Notes under the pieces: generated by a model
Database searches by the model: none
Told to the model about the DNA's origin: nothing
The model's input: only the letters and a program-made list of their open reading frames with translations
Part shown: positions 3,008 to 11,691 of the stretch, piece after piece
Layout of the letters: each line of letters begins with the position of its first letter
Position numbering within the stretch: the stretch's first letter is position 1
Translations under genes and position numbers: made by a program
Assembly: GCA_035709445.1 (NCBI GenBank)
Contig: DASTET010001092.1
Span: 1-11,930 of the forward strand
Length of the DNA stretch: 11,930 nt
Source of the DNA: Blastocatellia bacterium
GTDB taxonomy: Bacteria > Acidobacteriota > Blastocatellia > UBA7656
Direction: 5' to 3'

Positions 3008-4132
3008 TTGCGTTTTTATATCGAAAGGTCTGCGGCGACGGTTCTGCTGGTAGCGGTCTGCGCCCTTGCTGTCGGGTGCGATCGGGGAGAAGAGAAGCGG
3101 TATGACTTGAAGGGCAAAGTGGTCAGCGTCGATAAGAGAGGCTCGACCGTGACCATCGCTCACGAAGAGATACCGGGCTACATGGAAGCGATGACCATGC
3201 CGTTCAGGCTGAAGGATGAATGGGCGTTCGACAAGCTGGCTCCAGGCGATCAGGTGACGGCGACGCTCGTAGTCCGAGGCGACCGCTCGTGGATCGAGGG
3301 CATCGTCTTCAGCCGACAAGAGCCGATTCCGGAAGGCGAAGCATCACCGGCAGCTTTGAATGAACCCGCGCCGGGCAGTGAAGTGCCCGGATTTTCGCTT
3401 ACGAATCAGGACGGCAAGCGCATAGACTTCGAGAAGTATAAAGGGCGGCCCCTGGTCGTAACATTCATCTATACGAGGTGCCCGGTCCCGGATTACTGCC
3501 CGTTGATGAGCGAGCGATTCGCAGAGATCGATAAGGCCATCAAGAAAGAGCCTCAGCTTTACGGTCAGGCGCGACTCCTGAGCGTCACCGTCGACCCGGA
3601 GTTCGATACGCCGGATGTGCTCAAGGCTTATGGGTCGGCCTTCACCGATCCCGCATTTCAGCACTGGGAGTTCGCCACCGGCACGCGCGACGAGATCAAG
3701 AAAGTGGCGGGCTATTTCGGCATGCAGTACTGGCCTGAAAAGGGCGAGATAATACACTCGCTTCGGACTGCGCTGGTCACGCCGGAAGGAAGACTCTTCA
3801 AGCTGTACCGTGGCAACGAGTGGAAGTCGGCGGAAATCCTCGCCGACCTCGAAGCCATGCGAGGCCAGGCGACGGCCGATCAACCGCAGCCCGGTAAGAG
3901 CGCCGTAAAGTCCTACAGCGGTGTAGGGGTGGTCGAGGAGATCGACAGGCAGATGGCGACCGTGCAGATCAATCACGAGGACATAAAAGATTTCATGCCT
4001 GCAATGAGCATGCCTTTTGCAGTGCGCGACAAAAGGCTGCTCGACGCGGCGCGGCCCGGCGACCGAGTGGAGTTCTCGGTCCACGCCGATGCTTCGGGCA
4101 TGGTGCTGGTTGCGTTAAAGAAGAGGGAATAA
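3008..4132 (+). CDS. Lipoprotein copper chaperone: SCO1/SenC thioredoxin-fold domain flanked by N- and C-terminal CusF-like Cu(I)-binding domains
   Basis: TTG start preceded by GGGAGG. Lipobox LAVGC. Two CusF-like H...M-x-M-P-F motifs (TIAHEEIPGYMEAMTMPF and INHEDIKDFMPAMSMPF; compare E. coli CusF ITIHHDPI...WPEMTMRF). Central SCO1 C-x3-C (CPVPDYCP) with the downstream conserved His (IIHSLRTALVTPEGRLF). Confidence 0.85.
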   Translation: MRFYIERSAATVLLVAVCALAVGCDRGEEKRYDLKGKVVSVDKRGSTVTIAHEEIPGYMEAMTMPFRLKDEWAFDKLAPGDQVTATLVVRGDRSWIEGIVFSRQEPIPEGEASPAALNEPAPGSEVPGFSLTNQDGKRIDFEKYKGRPLVVTFIYTRCPVPDYCPLMSERFAEIDKAIKKEPQLYGQARLLSVTVDPEFDTPDVLKAYGSAFTDPAFQHWEFATGTRDEIKKVAGYFGMQYWPEKGEIIHSLRTALVTPEGRLFKLYRGNEWKSAEILADLEAMRGQATADQPQPGKSAVKSYSGVGVVEEIDRQMATVQINHEDIKDFMPAMSMPFAVRDKRLLDAARPGDRVEFSVHADASGMVLVALKKRE

Positions 4133-4137
4133 AAACA

Positions 4138-4254
4138 GGAAGCCAGAAGTCAGAAGCCAGAAGTCCGTCGTTAAAGATTCTGATTTCATTCACCCCGCAG
4201 CAATCGAGAGACTGCGCGAGAGATTCCGGCTTCTGACTTCTGGCTTCTGGCTTC
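4138..4254. repeat. 117-nt inverted repeat. Arms of 27 nt are built from tandem heptamers GAAGCCA/GAAGTCA; the loop is 62 nt; A5 and T5 runs flank it. Probable bidirectional intrinsic terminator after the SCO1/CusF gene.
   Basis: Left arm 4139-4165 (gaagccagaagtcagaagccagaagtc). Right arm 4228-4254 (ggcttctgacttctggcttctggcttc). In full register the arms pair with two G.U and one C.A mismatch; a 7-nt register shift gives 20 perfect bp. Upstream aaaaa (4131-4135) and downstream ttttt (4255-4259). Confidence 0.6.
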
Positions 4255-4400
4255 TTTTTACAATACTTTACTTCTGGTCCCGGGAGGGGCGTGATAATCT
4301 TGATCGGCCAGGCTCCACGCGGCGGGCGGAACTTCAGCCTTTTTGCCGCGTGAGAGCCCTTTAAGGCGCGAGGAAATCAGACAATTACGGGAGAGACAGG

Positions 4401-5642
4401 ATGAAGTTGAGATATCTGTTTTCCATTTTGCTCTCGCTTGCGCTCGTGCAGGTATCTGCGGGTCGGTCGGCCCGCGATTACGACTGGCCGCAGTGGAGAG
4501 GCGCGGACCGAACGGGTCTATCGAGAGATACCGGGCTGCTGAAATCGTGGCCCGCCGAAGGCCCGTCTGTCGTCTGGACGATCTCGAATCTTGGCGAAGG
4601 CTACGGCTCAGTCGCAATCCAGGGCAATTATATATTCGTACAGGGGGCGAAGGGGAGCGAGAGCGTCGTATTCTGCCTGAACCGCGCCGACGGCAAGACC
4701 ATCTGGACGCAGGCGCTCGGCCCCCGTCTCGACCAGGACCGTGGAGGCGGCCCGCGCGGCACGCCCACCGTTGACGGCGATAGGGTCTATGTGCTCACGG
4801 AAAACGGCGACCTGGCCTGTCTTAAAGCCAGGGACGGGGCGGTCGTCTGGCGTAAGAACATCATGAAAGATTTCGGTGGCCGCAACATCACCTGGCTCAT
4901 AAGCGAGTCGCCGCTAATCGATGGGAACAACCTGATAGTCACTCCCGGCGGAGAAGGAGCGGCGATAGTCGCGCTCGACAAGATGAGCGGAAAGACCGTC
5001 TGGACGAGCAAAGAGCTGAGCGACCCTGCCGGGTATTCATCATGCCTGGTCGCCGATGTGGGCGGGGTGCGCACGATAATGGGATTTACGGCGAGGGCCG
5101 CCGTCGGTCTTCGCGCCACGGACGGAAAGCTTATGTGGCGTTATGAGCCCGTATCCAACCGCACGGCCAATTGCACGACCCCCGTCTATCATGACAACAA
5201 GGTCTTCTACACATCGGCCTACGGGACGGGCTGCGCCCTGCTCGGTCTCAAACCGGAAGGCGGAGAGGTCCGCGCCCAGGAGGTCTATTTCAGCAAAGAC
5301 ATGATGAACCATCACGGCGGCGTGGTGCTGATCAACGGATACCTCTACGGCTTCTCAAACGCGATACTCACCTGCATAGAGTTCAACACGGGCAAAGTCA
5401 TGTGGAAAGACCGCAGCGTGGGGAAGGGCTCGCTCACCTATGCCGACGGCCACCTTTACCTGCTCGGCGAGAACAACACGGTCGGGCTGGCCGAAGCCAC
5501 GCCCGAAGGCTACAGGGAGAAGGGCAGGTTTAAGATCGCCGACCAGGGCTGGCCAAGCTGGGCGCACCCGGTCGTCGCAGGCGGAAGGTTCTATATACGG
5601 AACCAGGGCATGCTCACCTGCTACAACGTGAAAGCGAAATGA
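4401..5642 (+). CDS. Secreted PQQ-like beta-propeller repeat protein (BamB/PQQ-enzyme-repeat family)
   Basis: 413 aa. Signal peptide MKLRYLFSILLSLALVQVSA. DWPQWRGADRTG motif typical of PQQ-repeat propellers. Recurring (V/I)Y-x-x-(D/N)G...L-x-A-x-D-x-x-x-G-x-x-x-W blades. Confidence 0.85.
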   Translation: MKLRYLFSILLSLALVQVSAGRSARDYDWPQWRGADRTGLSRDTGLLKSWPAEGPSVVWTISNLGEGYGSVAIQGNYIFVQGAKGSESVVFCLNRADGKTIWTQALGPRLDQDRGGGPRGTPTVDGDRVYVLTENGDLACLKARDGAVVWRKNIMKDFGGRNITWLISESPLIDGNNLIVTPGGEGAAIVALDKMSGKTVWTSKELSDPAGYSSCLVADVGGVRTIMGFTARAAVGLRATDGKLMWRYEPVSNRTANCTTPVYHDNKVFYTSAYGTGCALLGLKPEGGEVRAQEVYFSKDMMNHHGGVVLINGYLYGFSNAILTCIEFNTGKVMWKDRSVGKGSLTYADGHLYLLGENNTVGLAEATPEGYREKGRFKIADQGWPSWAHPVVAGGRFYIRNQGMLTCYNVKAK

Positions 5643-5649
5643 GATCTGA

Positions 5650-5692
5650 GACAGGATTAACAGGTCTTTTTGTACGACCTGTTAATCCTGTC
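5650..5692. terminator. Perfect 17-bp palindrome (GACAGGATTAACAGGTC, 9-nt loop tttttgtac) at the junction of convergent genes. Candidate bidirectional terminator or protein-binding palindrome.
   Basis: Left arm 5650-5666; right arm 5676-5692, an exact reverse complement. The right arm contains the last three codons and the TAA stop (5682-5684) of the minus-strand 157-aa gene. No clean U-tract follows on either strand. Confidence 0.5.
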
Positions 5693-6155
5693 CGATGACG
5701 CTGTACTCGACCGACCCGTCCTTCAGCGAATCCGCAAAGTACAATTCGACGCGCCTGCCTGAGAAGCGCTCCAGGAGCGCCTTTCGCGCCCTCTTCAGGT
5801 TCGCGATCTGCTTCTGATTGAACTCCGGCTCGGTGAAAAAGTACTGCACACTCTCTTTGAAGAAGAGACAGTCGTCGTGCCCTACGAGCACGATCTCGGG
5901 CGACCGGGTGCGCTTGAGAAGAAAAGAGAGCGATTGCAGGTTGACCTTGAAGAACTTGGGCATCAAGTGCTCGAGCGTGACGAAGTGGCCGCCGCCCGGC
6001 ACGGCTTGCAGCGCGTAAGACGACAGGCGCAGCCCTTCGGTCAGGAACTCGTGAAACCCGGCCTGAAACCGGTGATCGCTGCAATGGATGACCACCGCCT
6101 CCGAGGTCGCGTCTTCCAGTCTGGCCTTTGATATGTAGATGGTCGGGGCTTTCAT
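5682..6155 (-). CDS. Small soluble hypothetical protein with a beta-carbonic-anhydrase-like metal-ligand pattern (C25-x-D27-x-R29 ... H93-x-x-C96); last gene of the NfeD-flotillin operon
   Basis: 157 aa, high GC3, no TM segment. VVIHCSDHRF resembles the beta-CA motif (...CSDSRV) and IVLVGHDDCLFF resembles the beta-CA motif (...VxGHxxCG), with 68-residue spacing (beta-CA about 56). An overlapping alternative-frame ORF (5614-6198) is Arg-rich and was rejected. Confidence 0.7.
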   Translation of the reverse strand: MKAPTIYISKARLEDATSEAVVIHCSDHRFQAGFHEFLTEGLRLSSYALQAVPGGGHFVTLEHLMPKFFKVNLQSLSFLLKRTRSPEIVLVGHDDCLFFKESVQYFFTEPEFNQKQIANLKRARKALLERFSGRRVELYFADSLKDGSVEYSVIGQD

Positions 6156-8622: not shown

Positions 8623-9540
8623 CTATTTCGAGGGGTCGGGCCGGGGTTTGAGGCTTTCGATGAAGTCGCGGTCTTTCGTCCCGGCGTGGCAGACTATGCA
8701 GGACTGCTGGCCGCGCTCTTCGAGGTCCGACACGAGCCCATAGGTCAGGCCGCGATCCGACCAGGTGATGACCTTTAGCCCCTCGATGGTTTCGTAATGA
8801 AAGGTGAGTCCCTTCGAGGCGATCTCTTCTCCGCCGCGCGGCGTGGCCACCCGGTCCGAGGTGACTACGAGCGTGATCGGACGGCCCTGCATCTGATAGG
8901 CGATATAAGCCGCATAATCATTCTTGAATCCGACCAGCCGCGCGCCTTCGATCTCGTAGAGCTTCTCCTGCCCGGATGTCTTCTGGTAATCCGGCAGCAC
9001 TAAACTGAACGAGACCTTTCCCGCAAACCAGCGCGACACCTCGTCGGGCGACCCGGAAGTGATCTCGAACGGGAGCTGGCCGCGCAGGTGGCGGAGGTGA
9101 GTATCGACGGCCATTATCGCAAACTCTGAGGTAAGCGAGGGCGGCGCGAGCGCAGGACGCCGCGCCGCGTACCAGAGCGCCGCTGCGATGATGAAGACGG
9201 CAACGGTGGCGAGCGCGAAGACCCGTCGGCCTTTCAGACTGAAGGGGGCGGCGGTCTTCCATAAAGACTTCTGCACGCGAGTCCGCAATTCGGGCGGAGC
9301 GGCATACACGGGCGGCGCATCGCTCAGCACACGCTCGGACTTCGCGCGAAGCTCGGGAGGCGCGGTATAAATCGGACGGGCCCGGCGTATGCTCTCGATG
9401 AACTGCCGCTCATCAGATACCATCTGCTCGCACGAACGGCATTCGGCCAGGTGCGCTTCGAATCGGGCGAGGTCCGAGCCGCTCAACTCGTCGTCGAGAT
9501 AGAAGGCTATCCGAGAGCGTATGTCGTCACAATAATTCAT
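8623..9540 (-). CDS. Transmembrane ZAS-type (zinc-finger HC2) anti-sigma factor with a periplasmic C-terminal domain ending in a CxxCH haem-c binding motif
   Basis: Start chosen at ATG 9540 (MNYCDD...). It forms an ATGA overlap with the stop codon of the upstream ECF sigma gene. ZAS signature C...H-x3-C-x2-C (FEAHLAECRSCEQ). Single TM helix (VFALATVAVFIIAAALWYAA). About 165-aa periplasmic domain. CIVCH is encoded at 8686-8700. The six-frame ORF extends to 9654, but the upstream extension is Arg/Gly-rich and lacks an RBS. Confidence 0.8.
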   Translation of the reverse strand: MNYCDDIRSRIAFYLDDELSGSDLARFEAHLAECRSCEQMVSDERQFIESIRRARPIYTAPPELRAKSERVLSDAPPVYAAPPELRTRVQKSLWKTAAPFSLKGRRVFALATVAVFIIAAALWYAARRPALAPPSLTSEFAIMAVDTHLRHLRGQLPFEITSGSPDEVSRWFAGKVSFSLVLPDYQKTSGQEKLYEIEGARLVGFKNDYAAYIAYQMQGRPITLVVTSDRVATPRGGEEIASKGLTFHYETIEGLKVITWSDRGLTYGLVSDLEERGQQSCIVCHAGTKDRDFIESLKPRPDPSK

Positions 9541-10109
9541 GCTTCTTTGGCCCGCATCGGTTTTCCCGCCGCTTCGGCCTGCCACTGACTGAGCAGCGAT
9601 CTCAGTTTTTCTCGCGCCCGTCCGAGCCGCGACATGACGGTCCCGGCGGGGCATCCCAGGATTCCGGAAATCTGCTGATAGCTGAAGCCTTCAAGGTCCC
9701 TGAGCACGATCACTTCGCGGTACAGCCGGGGAAGGCTTTCAATGGCGGCCCTTACCTCTTCGCGCTCTATCTTTCTAACAAAGACCGTATAAGGGTTGCT
9801 TGCAAGGCTGTCGAGCCATTCAGCGCGGCCCTCTTCTTCCTCATCCAGCTCGACAAATCGCGGGCCGCTACGCGCGTGGCGGAGCTGGTTGAGCCAGATA
9901 TTTCGGCAGATGGCAAACAGCCAGCCTTTCAGATTGCTGTCAGGCATGAGCTGACCGAAGGCCCTCACGGCCCGCAGATAGGTCTCCTGCACAAGGTCTT
10001 GAGCTTCGGCCTCATTGCGCGCAAGCGCCATGGCGTATCCGTACAGCGCATCGATATGCTCGATTGCCGCCTGGCGAAAGTCCACGCTGTCGCCTTTATT
10101 CTCGCTCAT
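9537..10109 (-). CDS. ECF (group IV) RNA polymerase sigma-70 factor
   Basis: Region 2 (DLVQETYLRAVRAF...WLFAICRNIWLNQLRH) and region 4 (REVIVLRDLEGFSYQQISGILGCPAGTVMSRLGRAR) are present. Start chosen at ATG 10109 (MSENKGD...), giving 190 aa, typical for ECF factors. The longer ORF to 10214 adds a hydrophobic non-homologous extension. The stop overlaps the anti-sigma start (ATGA). Confidence 0.85.
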   Translation of the reverse strand: MSENKGDSVDFRQAAIEHIDALYGYAMALARNEAEAQDLVQETYLRAVRAFGQLMPDSNLKGWLFAICRNIWLNQLRHARSGPRFVELDEEEEGRAEWLDSLASNPYTVFVRKIEREEVRAAIESLPRLYREVIVLRDLEGFSYQQISGILGCPAGTVMSRLGRAREKLRSLLSQWQAEAAGKPMRAKEA

Positions 10110-10206
10110 GATGAGCCCTGCGCCGTTGTAAAGGGCGCATAATAATAACACATGACCTCTTAAATTATTCCCTCCGCGCCCGAATAAATTCACCGGCGTG
10201 AGTGCC

Positions 10207-10233
10207 GTCACCATTCGAGGTGACTCGTGTCAC
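10207..10233. promoter_or_regulatory. Overlapping palindromes GTCACC-N6-GGTGAC and GTGAC-N4-GTCAC in the divergent sigma/CCP intergenic region. Candidate operator.
   Basis: gtcaccattcgaggtgactcgtgtcac read directly from the sequence. About 100 nt upstream of the ECF sigma start and about 145 nt upstream of the CCP start. Confidence 0.3.
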
Positions 10234-10375: not shown

Positions 10376-11533
10376 ATGAAAAACAGACTACGCAATATAA
10401 AGCTGCTGCTGATTGCTGCGGCGACTGTTTTTGTCGTCATAAATCTTCTTCCCGTCACGGGGGTCGCCCAGAAAGAGAAATACAAGCCGGACCTGCCCCC
10501 GGCAATCCCGGCTGATCTATGGGAGATGCTCATCCCCGAAGACAATCCCATGACCGAAGCCAAGATCGCTTTAGGACGCGACCTCTATTTCGACAAGCGT
10601 CTTTCAGTAGATAACACCGTGAGCTGCGCGACCTGCCACGATCCGAAGACCGCTTTCGCAGAATCGAAGATCGTCGCCGAAGGGATAGGCGGCAAGAAGG
10701 GCGCGCGCAACTCTCCCACGGTCCTCAATGCGATGTTCAACGTCGAGCAGTTCTGGGATGGCCGCGCAAAAACGCTCGAAGAACAGGCCAAGGGGCCGCT
10801 CACGAACCCCTTAGAGATGGGCATGCCCTCGCACGACGCGGTCGTCGATCGGGTAAAACAGGCGCCCGACTATGTGAAGCGGTTCCAGGAGGTGTTCGGC
10901 GGCCCGGTCACCATCGACAACATTGCCAAGGCTATAGCCTCTTTCGAGCGCACGCAGCTTTCCGGCGATTCTCCGTTCGACCGTTTCAACGCTGGCGATA
11001 AGTCCGCCATAAGCGCCGAAGCCCAGCGCGGGTTCGAGATATTCAAGGGCAAGGGCCGCTGTATAACCTGTCACGAGTTCAACGCCTCTTCGCCTTTCTT
11101 CACTGACTTCAAGTACCACAATGTCGGCGTCGGAATGAAAGCGACGAAGAACTTCGAATCGCTCGCCCGGCAGGTCCAGCAGATGGCTCAGCAGCAGCAG
11201 CTCACCGCCGAATCTTTGGACCAGCTTTCGCTCAGCGAAGGGTTCTCCGAGCTTGGCAGGTTCCTCGTCACGCGCGAGCCGAAAGACGTAGGAGCATTCA
11301 AGACGCCTCCGCTACGCGACATAGAGCTGACCGCTCCTTATATGCACGACGGCAGCCAGAAGACGCTGCGCGAGGTCATAGACTTTTACAACAAAGGGGG
11401 CGAGCCGAACCCCAATCTCGACGGCGGGATTCGCAAGCTCGATCTCACAGACCAGGAGATAAGCGACCTGGAAGCGTTCCTGAAATCATTGACCAGTGAT
11501 CGCGTTCGCAAACTAGTGTCTGGCGAGTCGTAA
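10376..11533 (+). CDS. ccp: Di-haem cytochrome c peroxidase (CCP/MauG family), secreted
   Basis: Signal peptide MKNRLRNIKLLLIAAATVFVVINLL. Two CxxCH motifs (CATCHDP, CITCHEF). Family signature TAPYMHDGS. Conserved FWDGRA and PLTNPLEMG segments. A Gln-rich insert (QVQQMAQQQQLTAESLDQLS) lies between the haem domains. Confidence 0.9.
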   Translation: MKNRLRNIKLLLIAAATVFVVINLLPVTGVAQKEKYKPDLPPAIPADLWEMLIPEDNPMTEAKIALGRDLYFDKRLSVDNTVSCATCHDPKTAFAESKIVAEGIGGKKGARNSPTVLNAMFNVEQFWDGRAKTLEEQAKGPLTNPLEMGMPSHDAVVDRVKQAPDYVKRFQEVFGGPVTIDNIAKAIASFERTQLSGDSPFDRFNAGDKSAISAEAQRGFEIFKGKGRCITCHEFNASSPFFTDFKYHNVGVGMKATKNFESLARQVQQMAQQQQLTAESLDQLSLSEGFSELGRFLVTREPKDVGAFKTPPLRDIELTAPYMHDGSQKTLREVIDFYNKGGEPNPNLDGGIRKLDLTDQEISDLEAFLKSLTSDRVRKLVSGES

Positions 11534-11542
11534 ACAGTCCAG

Positions 11543-11666
11543 CGAGTCTGGCGAGTCGCGAGTCTGGCGAGTCGCTTTCGAGACAGACACCGCTTTAAAC
11601 AGGTGTTGCAAAGTAATCAGCGCCGCGAGGAGCGGGACTCGCTAGACTCGCGACTCGCCAGACTCG
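11543..11666. repeat. 124-nt inverted repeat with 31-nt arms built from tandem GCGAGTC(TG) units and a 62-nt loop. The unit series begins inside the 3' end of the CCP gene.
   Basis: Left arm 11543-11573 (cgagtctggcgagtcgcgagtctggcgagtc). Right arm 11636-11666 (gactcgctagactcgcgactcgccagactcg). This gives 31 bp with a single G.U. An additional copy of tctggcgagtcg at 11519-11530 encodes the CCP C-terminus ...SGES immediately before the TAA stop. No flanking T-tracts. Confidence 0.6.
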
Positions 11667-11691
11667 TTAGACTCATTATGGAGATGAACTT

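Follow-up and report, generated by a model that had tools for sequence, protein, structure and literature searches.

A heptamer-built hairpin at the end of a copper chaperone gene

We analysed an 11,930 nt stretch of DNA (the window) from a Blastocatellia bacterium (phylum Acidobacteriota; assembly GCA_035709445.1, contig DASTET010001092.1), and focused on an inverted repeat of tandem heptamers at 4139–4254, here called E1. The element is 117 bases in total length and is positioned just 3' of a gene encoding a copper chaperone. A sister element, E2, is found at 11536–11673. The E1 locus is made up of the following features.

3008–4132, + strand: SCO1/SenC and CusF fusion gene (copper chaperone), from the open reading frame (ORF) list; Pfam CusF_Ec 3.3e-36, SCO1-SenC 6.1e-24
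4131–4135, + strand: A5 run, its first two bases being the AA of the TAA stop; able to pair with the T5 run
4139–4165, + strand: E1 left arm, GAAGCCA GAAGTCA GAAGCCA GAAGTC; 3.9 heptamer units, YCAGAAG family
4166–4223, + strand: E1 loop, 58 nt; 61–62 nt unpaired in the two best registers
4224–4254, + strand: E1 right arm, TTCCGGC TTCTGAC TTCTGGC TTCTGGC TTC; CTTCTGR units, reverse complement of the left arm
4255–4259, + strand: T5 run, abutting the stem; T4–T6 in the orthologous loci L170 and L168

The TAA stop of the SCO1-CusF gene (4130–4132) is followed by AAACAG, so that the left arm starts 6 nt beyond the stop codon; the arms enclose 58 nt, and the right arm runs directly into TTTTT. Reading the sequence confirmed that the arms are (YCAGAAG)n and (CTTCTGR)n arrays in inverted orientation, as a first-pass annotation of the window had proposed. 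The left arm holds a 13-nt repeat at a spacing of 14, and the right arm amounts to 4.4 heptamer units. Pairing of 4134–4165 with 4228–4259 yields 27 Watson–Crick pairs, three G.T pairs and two mismatches with 62 nt between the arms, while the shifted register 4138–4162/4224–4248 yields 20 perfect pairs in a row around 61 nt. Six pairing registers were found, each 7 nt apart. The 27 bp imperfect stem, the perfect 20 bp alternative, the A5 and T5 flanks, the slipped pairing alternatives and the position after a copper chaperone gene (the upstream ORF being the SCO1/SenC and CusF fusion) had all been described at first pass, and all were reproduced.

The E1 inverted repeat is real, and chance is excluded as its source. 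Across 200 dinucleotide shuffles of the window, the mean inverted-repeat score was 10.6 and the maximum 15, compared with 21 for E1 and 29 for E2. RNA folding of both strands, which had been suggested as a check, gave −56.5 kcal/mol (z −7.0) for the + strand and −64.8 kcal/mol (z −8.3) for the − strand, and none of 200 shuffles was as stable as the E1 fold.

The stem ends at 4254 and is followed immediately by T5 (4255–4259) on the + strand, the same strand as the gene, which is what is expected of an intrinsic terminator; with A5 upstream, the terminator-like look of the element reported earlier is justified. The compactness of an intrinsic terminator (stem of ~5–14 bp, loop of 3–8 nt) is absent, as the E1 loop is ~62 nt. 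A consensus terminator and promoter scan did not call E1, and none of the 17 consensus terminator matches in the window lies at a gene end. The Rfam 15 covariance models gave no match at E ≤1 in the whole window on either strand. E1 does carry two features of heptamer hairpins, namely at least three tandem 7-nt units per arm and a complementary array nearby on the same strand. With a central spacer of ~62 nt, duplex DNA is unlikely to extrude a cruciform here, and the hairpin would therefore matter, if at all, in single-stranded DNA or RNA.

A sister element after the peroxidase gene

The first-pass annotation had likened E1 in size and architecture to a second element at 11543–11666. This element, E2, is real, and comprises the following features.

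10376–11533, + strand: di-haem cytochrome c peroxidase gene, TAA stop 3 nt before E2
11536–11573, + strand: E2 left arm, GAGTCTGGC / GAGTCGC units
11574–11635, + strand: E2 loop, 62 nt, without similarity to the E1 loop
11636–11673, + strand: E2 right arm, followed by GGAG and, at ~11693, the ATG of the next gene (a twin-arginine translocation (TAT)-signal protein); no T-run

The arms of E2 are 43 nt long, 88% complementary and separated by 62 nt. They combine a 7-nt unit (GAGTCGC) with a 9-nt unit (GAGTCTGGC) into a compound period of 16 nt, and the array begins 3–8 nt from the stop codon. The likeness to E1 stands with regard to the 62 nt between the arms. It does not extend to the loops, which are unrelated (alignment of the two elements gave only arm-level AGYC similarity, and no common loop or core), and 62 nt is not a property of the wider class: a fixed spacer of ~62 nt was considered as a class trait and rejected, as class spacers measure 4–90 nt and that of the L170 orthologue of E1 is ~130 nt.

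Seven Logan contigs carrying the peroxidase gene (L001–L007) all stop 27–37 nt past its stop codon, within the E2 left arm. It follows that repeat hairpins of this kind break k-mer assemblies, and under-representation in short-read metagenome-assembled genomes (MAGs) is to be expected.

Heptamer hairpins in related genomes

Tandem arrays with periods of 4 to 12 nt were compared using our own scripts in 80 related genomic loci (1.36 Mb, from Blastocatellia and Pyrinomonadaceae relatives), with shuffled sequence as the control, and the scan was then extended by 80 metagenomic loci to a total of 1.96 Mb. The census was drawn from these relatives and the window. The first scan found 39 arrays of period 7 against 0–2 for each of the other periods and none in the shuffles, and the extended scan found 68 against no more than 5 for any other period. 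Period 7 is the sole over-represented tandem period in related Blastocatellia and Pyrinomonadaceae DNA.

An array was considered paired when an inverted copy of its own heptamer lay ≤260 nt away. This was the case for 47 of 74 arrays before duplicate loci were removed, and 45 unique hairpins were obtained; some of the 27 unpaired arrays lie at contig ends. The paired hairpins use 33 heptamer types (including CAGTTTT, GATTGCG, GTGACAA, AGTTCAA and ATTTCAG), have total lengths of 35–222 nt, and often coexist as several distinct heptamers in one 20-kb locus. Only one of the 45 hairpins falls within an open frame, compared with ~30 expected by random placement. Hairpin density was 4.3 per 100 kb in Pyrinomonadaceae, 1.6–1.7 in other Blastocatellia and Acidobacteriota, and 0.33 in other classes and phyla. 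The first-pass suggestion that E1 belongs to a family of structured elements is upheld in the architectural sense, E1 standing with E2 and with dozens of elements in related genomes.

The census included a giant member at L027 12680–12943, with 66–75-nt arms of CTTGGTG/CTTTGAA/CTTTGTA units, a total length of 222–264 nt and an RNA fold of −108 to −116 kcal/mol. It also drew attention to MAGs labelled Heliobacteriaceae, Heliomicrobium or Bifidobacteriaceae (L011, L021, L024, L033 and L063), the loci of which are 41–54% identical to this Acidobacteriota gene. Two of these (L011 and L033) bear heptamer hairpins of the Pyrinomonadaceae type, and the submitters' taxon labels look wrong.

For strand and position statistics we used the 31 elements that could be oriented by an adjoining stop codon. 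ORF-based gene calls were noisy, and orthologous loci fell into different convergent, tandem and divergent spacer classes. The median distance from stop codon to array was 6 nt. TTTT occurred within 12 nt downstream in 7 of the 31 elements, including E1, against a background of 6.8%, an approximately threefold enrichment (binomial P=0.004). In many members the ATG of the next gene lies only 2–15 nt past the stem. Many hairpins (for example, L015 4735–4819, L103 20394–20511, L128 13023–13097 and L066 6118–6190) are wedged between a stop codon 0–10 nt upstream and an ATG 2–15 nt downstream, leaving no space for a Shine–Dalgarno sequence outside the stem, an arrangement which suggests that stop and start are juxtaposed at the stem base.

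This placement raises the question of whether the hairpins are intercistronic RNA elements other than terminators, either RNase III processing sites or translational-coupling devices that join stop and start at the stem base and set the relative expression of the cistrons. RNase III substrates have a stem-length requirement, which the class stems of 21–35 bp satisfy. The many members held between a stop codon and a nearby ATG without a T-run, of which E2 (GGAG and ATG) is one, are in keeping with this explanation, and coupling has been proposed for hairpins of cyanobacterial STRR repeats (STRR, short tandemly repeated repetitive) between hupS and hupL (PMC2670836). Coupling is nevertheless inapplicable to E1, which lies 145 nt before the next start codon and is followed by a U-tract, and the class shows none of the sense-strand bias that an RNA element of this kind should display. 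We consider such a role for E1 unlikely.

We also scanned viral contigs (IMG/VR loci L171–L441) for four-unit arrays of NTYCTGR, the heptamer family of the E1 right arm, and of two composition-matched permuted heptamers. NTYCTGR arrays occurred in at least 120 contigs, and those of the two controls in 71 and 110. The controls being about as frequent, NTYCTGR is not demonstrably special. Some of the viral arrays form close inverted pairs (for example, L209 1397–1480 and 9504–9588, L245 8244–8339 and L430 2495–2607), which shows that heptamer hairpins are not restricted to cellular chromosomes.

The viral counts bear on a DNA-level explanation, in which a nucleoid-associated or regulatory protein would bind the opposed heptamer arrays cooperatively as double-stranded DNA, as has been speculated (with IHF/HU in mind) for Geobacter metallireducens. 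Strand symmetry suits a role in DNA, as does the recurrence of the MTYCTGA/NTYCTGR family, found in E1 and its L170 orthologue, at a second locus common to four Pyrinomonadaceae genomes and in the eight class 3 pairs of Geobacter, and further NTYCTGR-like units lie past the T-run in the conserved block downstream of E1. However, at least 33 heptamer types in the same lineage, often within one 20-kb locus, are too many for one protein; arm spacing is unconstrained (4–90 nt); in viral contigs the composition-matched controls reach about the same frequency as NTYCTGR; and placement beside stop codons is unlike that of promoter-proximal regulators. Binding arrays are an improbable explanation of E1, a little more so than the intercistronic element.

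An equally improbable idea is that heptamer hairpins, far from being passive products of slippage, are the footprint of a dedicated cross-phylum machinery working on nucleic acid in a 7-nt register, by reading or by extension. Both arms would be built and made symmetrical by, for instance, a protein that binds the repeats, or by a polymerase activity prone to template switching or stuttering, and the NTYCTGR family of Blastocatellia, Pyrinomonadaceae and Geobacter would then represent one 'allele', comparable to the REPIN–RAYT system (inverted doublets of repetitive extragenic palindromic (REP) sequences with their REP-associated tyrosine transposases) but with simple-sequence-repeat (SSR) arms.

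Evolution of E1 and of other resident hairpins

The nearest reference genomes are Blastocatellia MAGs with protein identity of ≤58%, and the relatives at 54–58% protein identity carry no heptamer hairpin at the E1 position. Closer relatives at the E1 locus (L088, L168 and L170) were retrieved via the upstream SCO1-CusF protein. In these lineages, the sequence immediately downstream of E1 forms a further feature.

4256–4325, + strand: downstream block TTTTACAAYACTTTAC...GCGTGATAMTCTT, conserved with L170 and L168 by alignment; outside the hairpin

L170 (76% protein identity to the window; 88% to L088) carries a complete orthologous element. Its left arm is GAAGTCAGAAGCCAGAA, its loop of ~130 nt contains an inner hairpin, and its right arm (ATTCTGA ATTCTGG ATCCTGA CTCCTGC) is followed by T6 and by the block TTTTACAACACTTTAC...GCGTGATACTCTT, which is conserved with the window. 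The two elements are orthologous by descent, because ~30 nt of the E1 loop adjoining the right arm (GCAATCGAGAGACTGCGCGAGAGATTC) is homologous to the L170 loop; the remainder of the loop is not conserved. In L088 (77% protein identity), the same CAGAAGY array (...GGGAATAAAGCAGGATTCAGAAGCCAGAAGTCAGAAGTCAGAAT...) is found right after the equivalent stop codon, and the contig ends past it. In L168 (76% protein identity), the hairpin is missing, and the T-run and conserved block are retained. Only 18 nt (GCCTGTCGCCCTGAGACC) separate stop codon and T-run in L168; they resemble degenerate right-arm units, and this interval has no stable fold (z 0.1). L168 thus looks less like a clean empty site than like the product of a deletion. 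In a contig of Joint Genome Institute (JGI) sample 3300056388, the encoded protein of which (P0001) is 96% identical, the spacer between the SCO1-CusF and pyrroloquinoline quinone (PQQ)-propeller genes is 233 nt compared with 268 nt in the window (lengths alone were compared), a difference of 35, or 5×7.

The downstream block corresponds to 1399–1450 of L170 and 1359–1410 of L168, lineages that are ~76% identical at the protein level, and has been kept with or without the hairpin. It possibly represents the promoter or 5' untranslated region of the PQQ-propeller gene. The block also carries extra NTYCTGR-like units beyond the T-run (CTTCTGG TCCCGGG / CTTCTGA TCCCTGA), and as an alternative may be the leftover of a longer array.

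In L169, an unpaired (GAAGCCA)x4 array, composed of the heptamer of E1, is found at 3408–3438 directly after the polA stop codon, and the SCO1-CusF gene is next. L169 lacks the TonB-receptor gene that sits between polA and SCO1 in other relatives, and the array may lie where a deletion or rearrangement was joined.

Unit numbers vary between the window, L088 and L170, and the same kind of change was seen at other loci. The flanks of L015, L097 and L103 are 89% identical and 7-nt indels lie in the arms (one per arm in one comparison); L102 and L145 are 95% identical save for a 15-nt indel in one arm; L017 and L030 show homogenization of units; and L012, L019, L022 and L030 share an NTYCTGA hairpin at one orthologous locus with differing unit numbers. 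Elements thus stay in place while whole 7-nt units are added to or removed from the arms, with partial homogenization, and while the loop sequence is replaced; loss of the element also occurs. The orthologous series at E1 and elsewhere show that the hairpins are resident elements that evolve as SSRs and do not transpose.

These observations decide against the MITE-like identity (MITE, miniature inverted-repeat transposable element) offered for E1 at first pass, under which the arms would be terminal inverted repeats recognized by a transposase or RAYT and copies would spread by transposition. Superficially, E1 fits such an element: the arms are terminal and inverted, 117–125 nt is a typical size for MITEs and REPINs, L168 lacks the element, and its heptamer recurs at other loci (L169 and the L012 group). 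Yet there is no target-site duplication, the flanks being AAACAG / TTTTTA at E1 and AAACAGTCCA / TTAGACTCATTA at E2, and among the related loci scanned no loop relationship links E1, E2 and further members sharing a heptamer, with no conserved core and with many unrelated heptamers in use. L170 shares both position and loop-proximal sequence with E1, which implies vertical descent; L168 still carries degenerate right-arm units; orthologues differ by unit indels within the arms, changing in place, and not by insertion or excision; and no transposase or RAYT gene is present in the window. We regard the mobile-element explanation as largely refuted, and as the least credible of those considered.

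Other features of the window

The gene that follows E1 is itself followed by a third structured gene end.

4401–5642: PQQ-propeller gene, stop codon 5640–5642, convergent with the − strand gene 5682–6155

At 5650–5692, between these two genes, lies a perfect 17-bp palindrome, GACAGGATTAACAGGTC-N9-GACCTGTTAATCCTGTC, the right arm of which overlaps the stop codon of the − strand gene; neither strand has a T-run after it. In appearance this is a hairpin serving both gene ends, and it is not heptamer-built. The structured gene ends of the window (E1, E2 and this palindrome) all bear long hairpins.

Between E1 and E2, the window encodes an extracytoplasmic function (ECF) sigma factor and a zf-HC2 anti-sigma factor on the − strand (8623–9654 and 9537–10214). 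The two ORFs overlap by ~118 nt, the Logan gene calls instead being 305 aa and 190 aa, and the overlap is probably an artefact of start-codon calling. A domain search also identified a CarboxypepD_reg TonB-dependent receptor gene within the window; such gene content, taken with the nearest genomes, assigns the DNA to class Blastocatellia of the Acidobacteriota.

E1 as a candidate terminator or 3'-end barrier

The explanation that we favour, with a probability of roughly 55%, is that E1 is a resident hairpin built by slippage which is transcribed and works as a terminator or as a barrier at the 3' end. Both arms would arise by replication slippage, one 7-nt unit at a time, and template switching between the arms, as in quasipalindromes, may keep them alike. 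The SCO1-CusF mRNA would carry E1 at its 3' end, where the RNA stem of 27–30 bp with its immediate U5 could serve as a factor-independent terminator, or as a barrier to 3'-exonucleases, ahead of the PQQ-propeller gene. The six registers would let the stem re-pair, so that unit indels are tolerated and stem strength drifts stepwise. The terminator-like reading gains support from the T-runs, as T5 abuts the E1 stem and T6 abuts that of L170. It is also in keeping with the raised frequency of TTTT after class members, and with the long hairpins that the structured gene ends of the window bear in place of canonical short-loop terminators.

Several observations weigh against this explanation. Termination or stabilization by E1 is inferred from geometry alone, and the ~62-nt loop is far above the size of a canonical intrinsic terminator. 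Selection on one RNA strand predicts an asymmetry between strands, yet in the class as a whole neither strand folded better than the other (15 sense vs 15 antisense, Wilcoxon P=0.47), and the sense strand had no excess of G.U pairs (46 vs 39). Since a T-run accompanies only 7 of the 31 members, termination cannot be the function of the whole class. L168 has neither the hairpin nor a replacement fold, and has kept T-run and block, which means that the hairpin is dispensable at this locus and that the T-run is not specific to it. Finally, RNase III could instead be what acts on a perfect stem of this length (≥20 bp).

The main rival to a functional E1 draws on much of the same evidence. Here, the hairpins are a neutral or selfish by-product: slippage, together with template switching that homogenizes palindromes, inflates a small non-coding hairpin until the constraints of the flanking genes are met, so that E1 would be functionless and T5 would be spacer sequence that was there beforehand. 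The absence of strand asymmetry in stability and G.U content, the unconserved loops, the drift of unit numbers among close relatives, the unsubstituted loss of E1 in L168 and the lack of a hairpin in the relatives at 54–58% identity would all be expected. So would the tight packing of spacers, which the elements fill between a stop codon and the start of the following gene, and the fact that arrays of arbitrary heptamers are common elsewhere, as seen for the three patterns in viral contigs. Against this, long palindromes are known to be unstable, and E1 has nevertheless persisted in at least two lineages while the protein of the adjacent gene diverged by ~24%. The proportion of paired arrays (47 of 74, duplicates included), the approximately threefold enrichment of T-runs after hairpins and the consistent start of the arrays a few nucleotides past the stop codon likewise count against a simple by-product. 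We judge a functionless E1 to be a serious possibility that is considerably less probable than a terminator or 3'-end barrier, and well ahead of the remaining alternatives.

Significance

A curious excess of heptamer repeats in some bacteria (STRR sequences) has been on record since 1990, and neither the '7' nor the function has been explained. E1 is an ordinary member of this under-described but known kind of repeat, newly documented for Blastocatellia and with a predicted function. The literature searched yielded no account of Acidobacteriota heptamer hairpins. Our analysis adds a soil Acidobacteriota lineage in which the paired hairpin form dominates: extrapolated, the density in Pyrinomonadaceae corresponds to ~200 hairpins per 5-Mb genome. 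The orthologous series display the evolution of the hairpins directly, in the form of 7-nt steps, arm homogenization, loop turnover and loss, and thereby provide a comparative system for two questions, namely whether such hairpins are selected as 3'-end or intercistronic RNA structures and why slippage is quantized at seven. As standard terminator and Rfam scans are blind to these hairpins, the annotation of gene ends in Acidobacteriota MAGs will miss them.

Comparison with known systems

With Rho-independent terminators, E1 shares a G+C-containing stem abutted by T5, an upstream A-run that gives it a bidirectional look, and a position immediately after a stop codon. It differs in its dimensions, the canonical 5–14 bp stem and 3–8 nt loop contrasting with 27–30 bp and ~62 nt in E1, and most of its sister elements lack a T-run.

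REPs are intergenic hairpins near stop codons, found within operons or where these end, which act as barriers at mRNA 3' ends and occasionally as terminators, and REPINs are inverted doublets of ~100–120 nt. The REP, bacterial interspersed mosaic element (BIME) and REPIN sequences of Proteobacteria resemble the present class as intergenic, hairpin-forming repeats close to stop codons, and to this extent the REP-like character suggested for E1 at first pass holds, if loosely. REPs have one conserved sequence per genome, are mobilized by RAYTs and do not have tandem arms, whereas the hairpins described here have SSR arms of many sequences, even within single 20-kb loci, which evolve in place, and the window contains no RAYT.

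The G-rich heptamers of Xanthomonas and Nostoc (GGGAATC and GGGGAYT) show a strong intergenic excess, and their unit numbers vary at the same loci among close relatives (Rehm et al. 2015, PMC4692102). A subset of the Xanthomonas heptamers forms inverted pairs able to make stem-loops, and slippage by the polymerase has been put forward as the cause of the bacterial excess of heptamer SSRs (PMC4692102). These repeats are G-rich, have been studied as G-quadruplex formers and are paired in a minority of cases, in contrast to E1, which is without G-tracts, and to the 47 of 74 arrays paired here.

The STRR sequences of cyanobacteria are 7-bp tandem repeats able to form hairpins between genes (between hupS and hupL, and upstream of hoxW), for which roles in transcript stability, termination and translational coupling have been proposed, none of them established (PMC2670836). 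Like the Blastocatellia class, they consist of tandem 7-nt units, have several sequences per genome, and are intergenic and often hairpin-forming beside or after genes (PMC2670836; PMC4692102). They differ in belonging to heterocystous cyanobacteria and in that many arrays are long and unpaired; the likeness is drawn here from their description.

A further close match is found in G. metallireducens, the genome of which contains paired opposite-strand arrays of tandem 7–9-mers with variable spacing, speculated to be IHF/HU sites (PMC2700814). Its class 3 predicted global regulator binding sites (Gmet_I301–I308; Aklujkar et al. 2009, PMC2700814) are, like E1, pairs of tandem-heptamer arrays on opposite strands. 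There are eight such pairs, with ~5 heptanucleotides per array and 72–115 nt in total, located beside genes and drawn as hairpins, and their units are ATTCTGA, CTCCTGA and CTTCTGA (consensus MTYCTGA) (PMC2700814). These belong to the same heptamer family as the CTTCTGA/CTTCTGG units of E1, and the same variants occur in the L170 right arm. The match may be coincidental, because permuted control heptamers are also frequent in viral contigs. The Geobacter sites differ from ours in lineage (Desulfobacterota) and in using one heptamer family in eight pairs per genome, compared with the dozens of heptamers seen here. On the evidence of its architecture, E1 belongs with the STRR hairpins and the Geobacter paired sites as the same kind of sequence, and not with MITEs.

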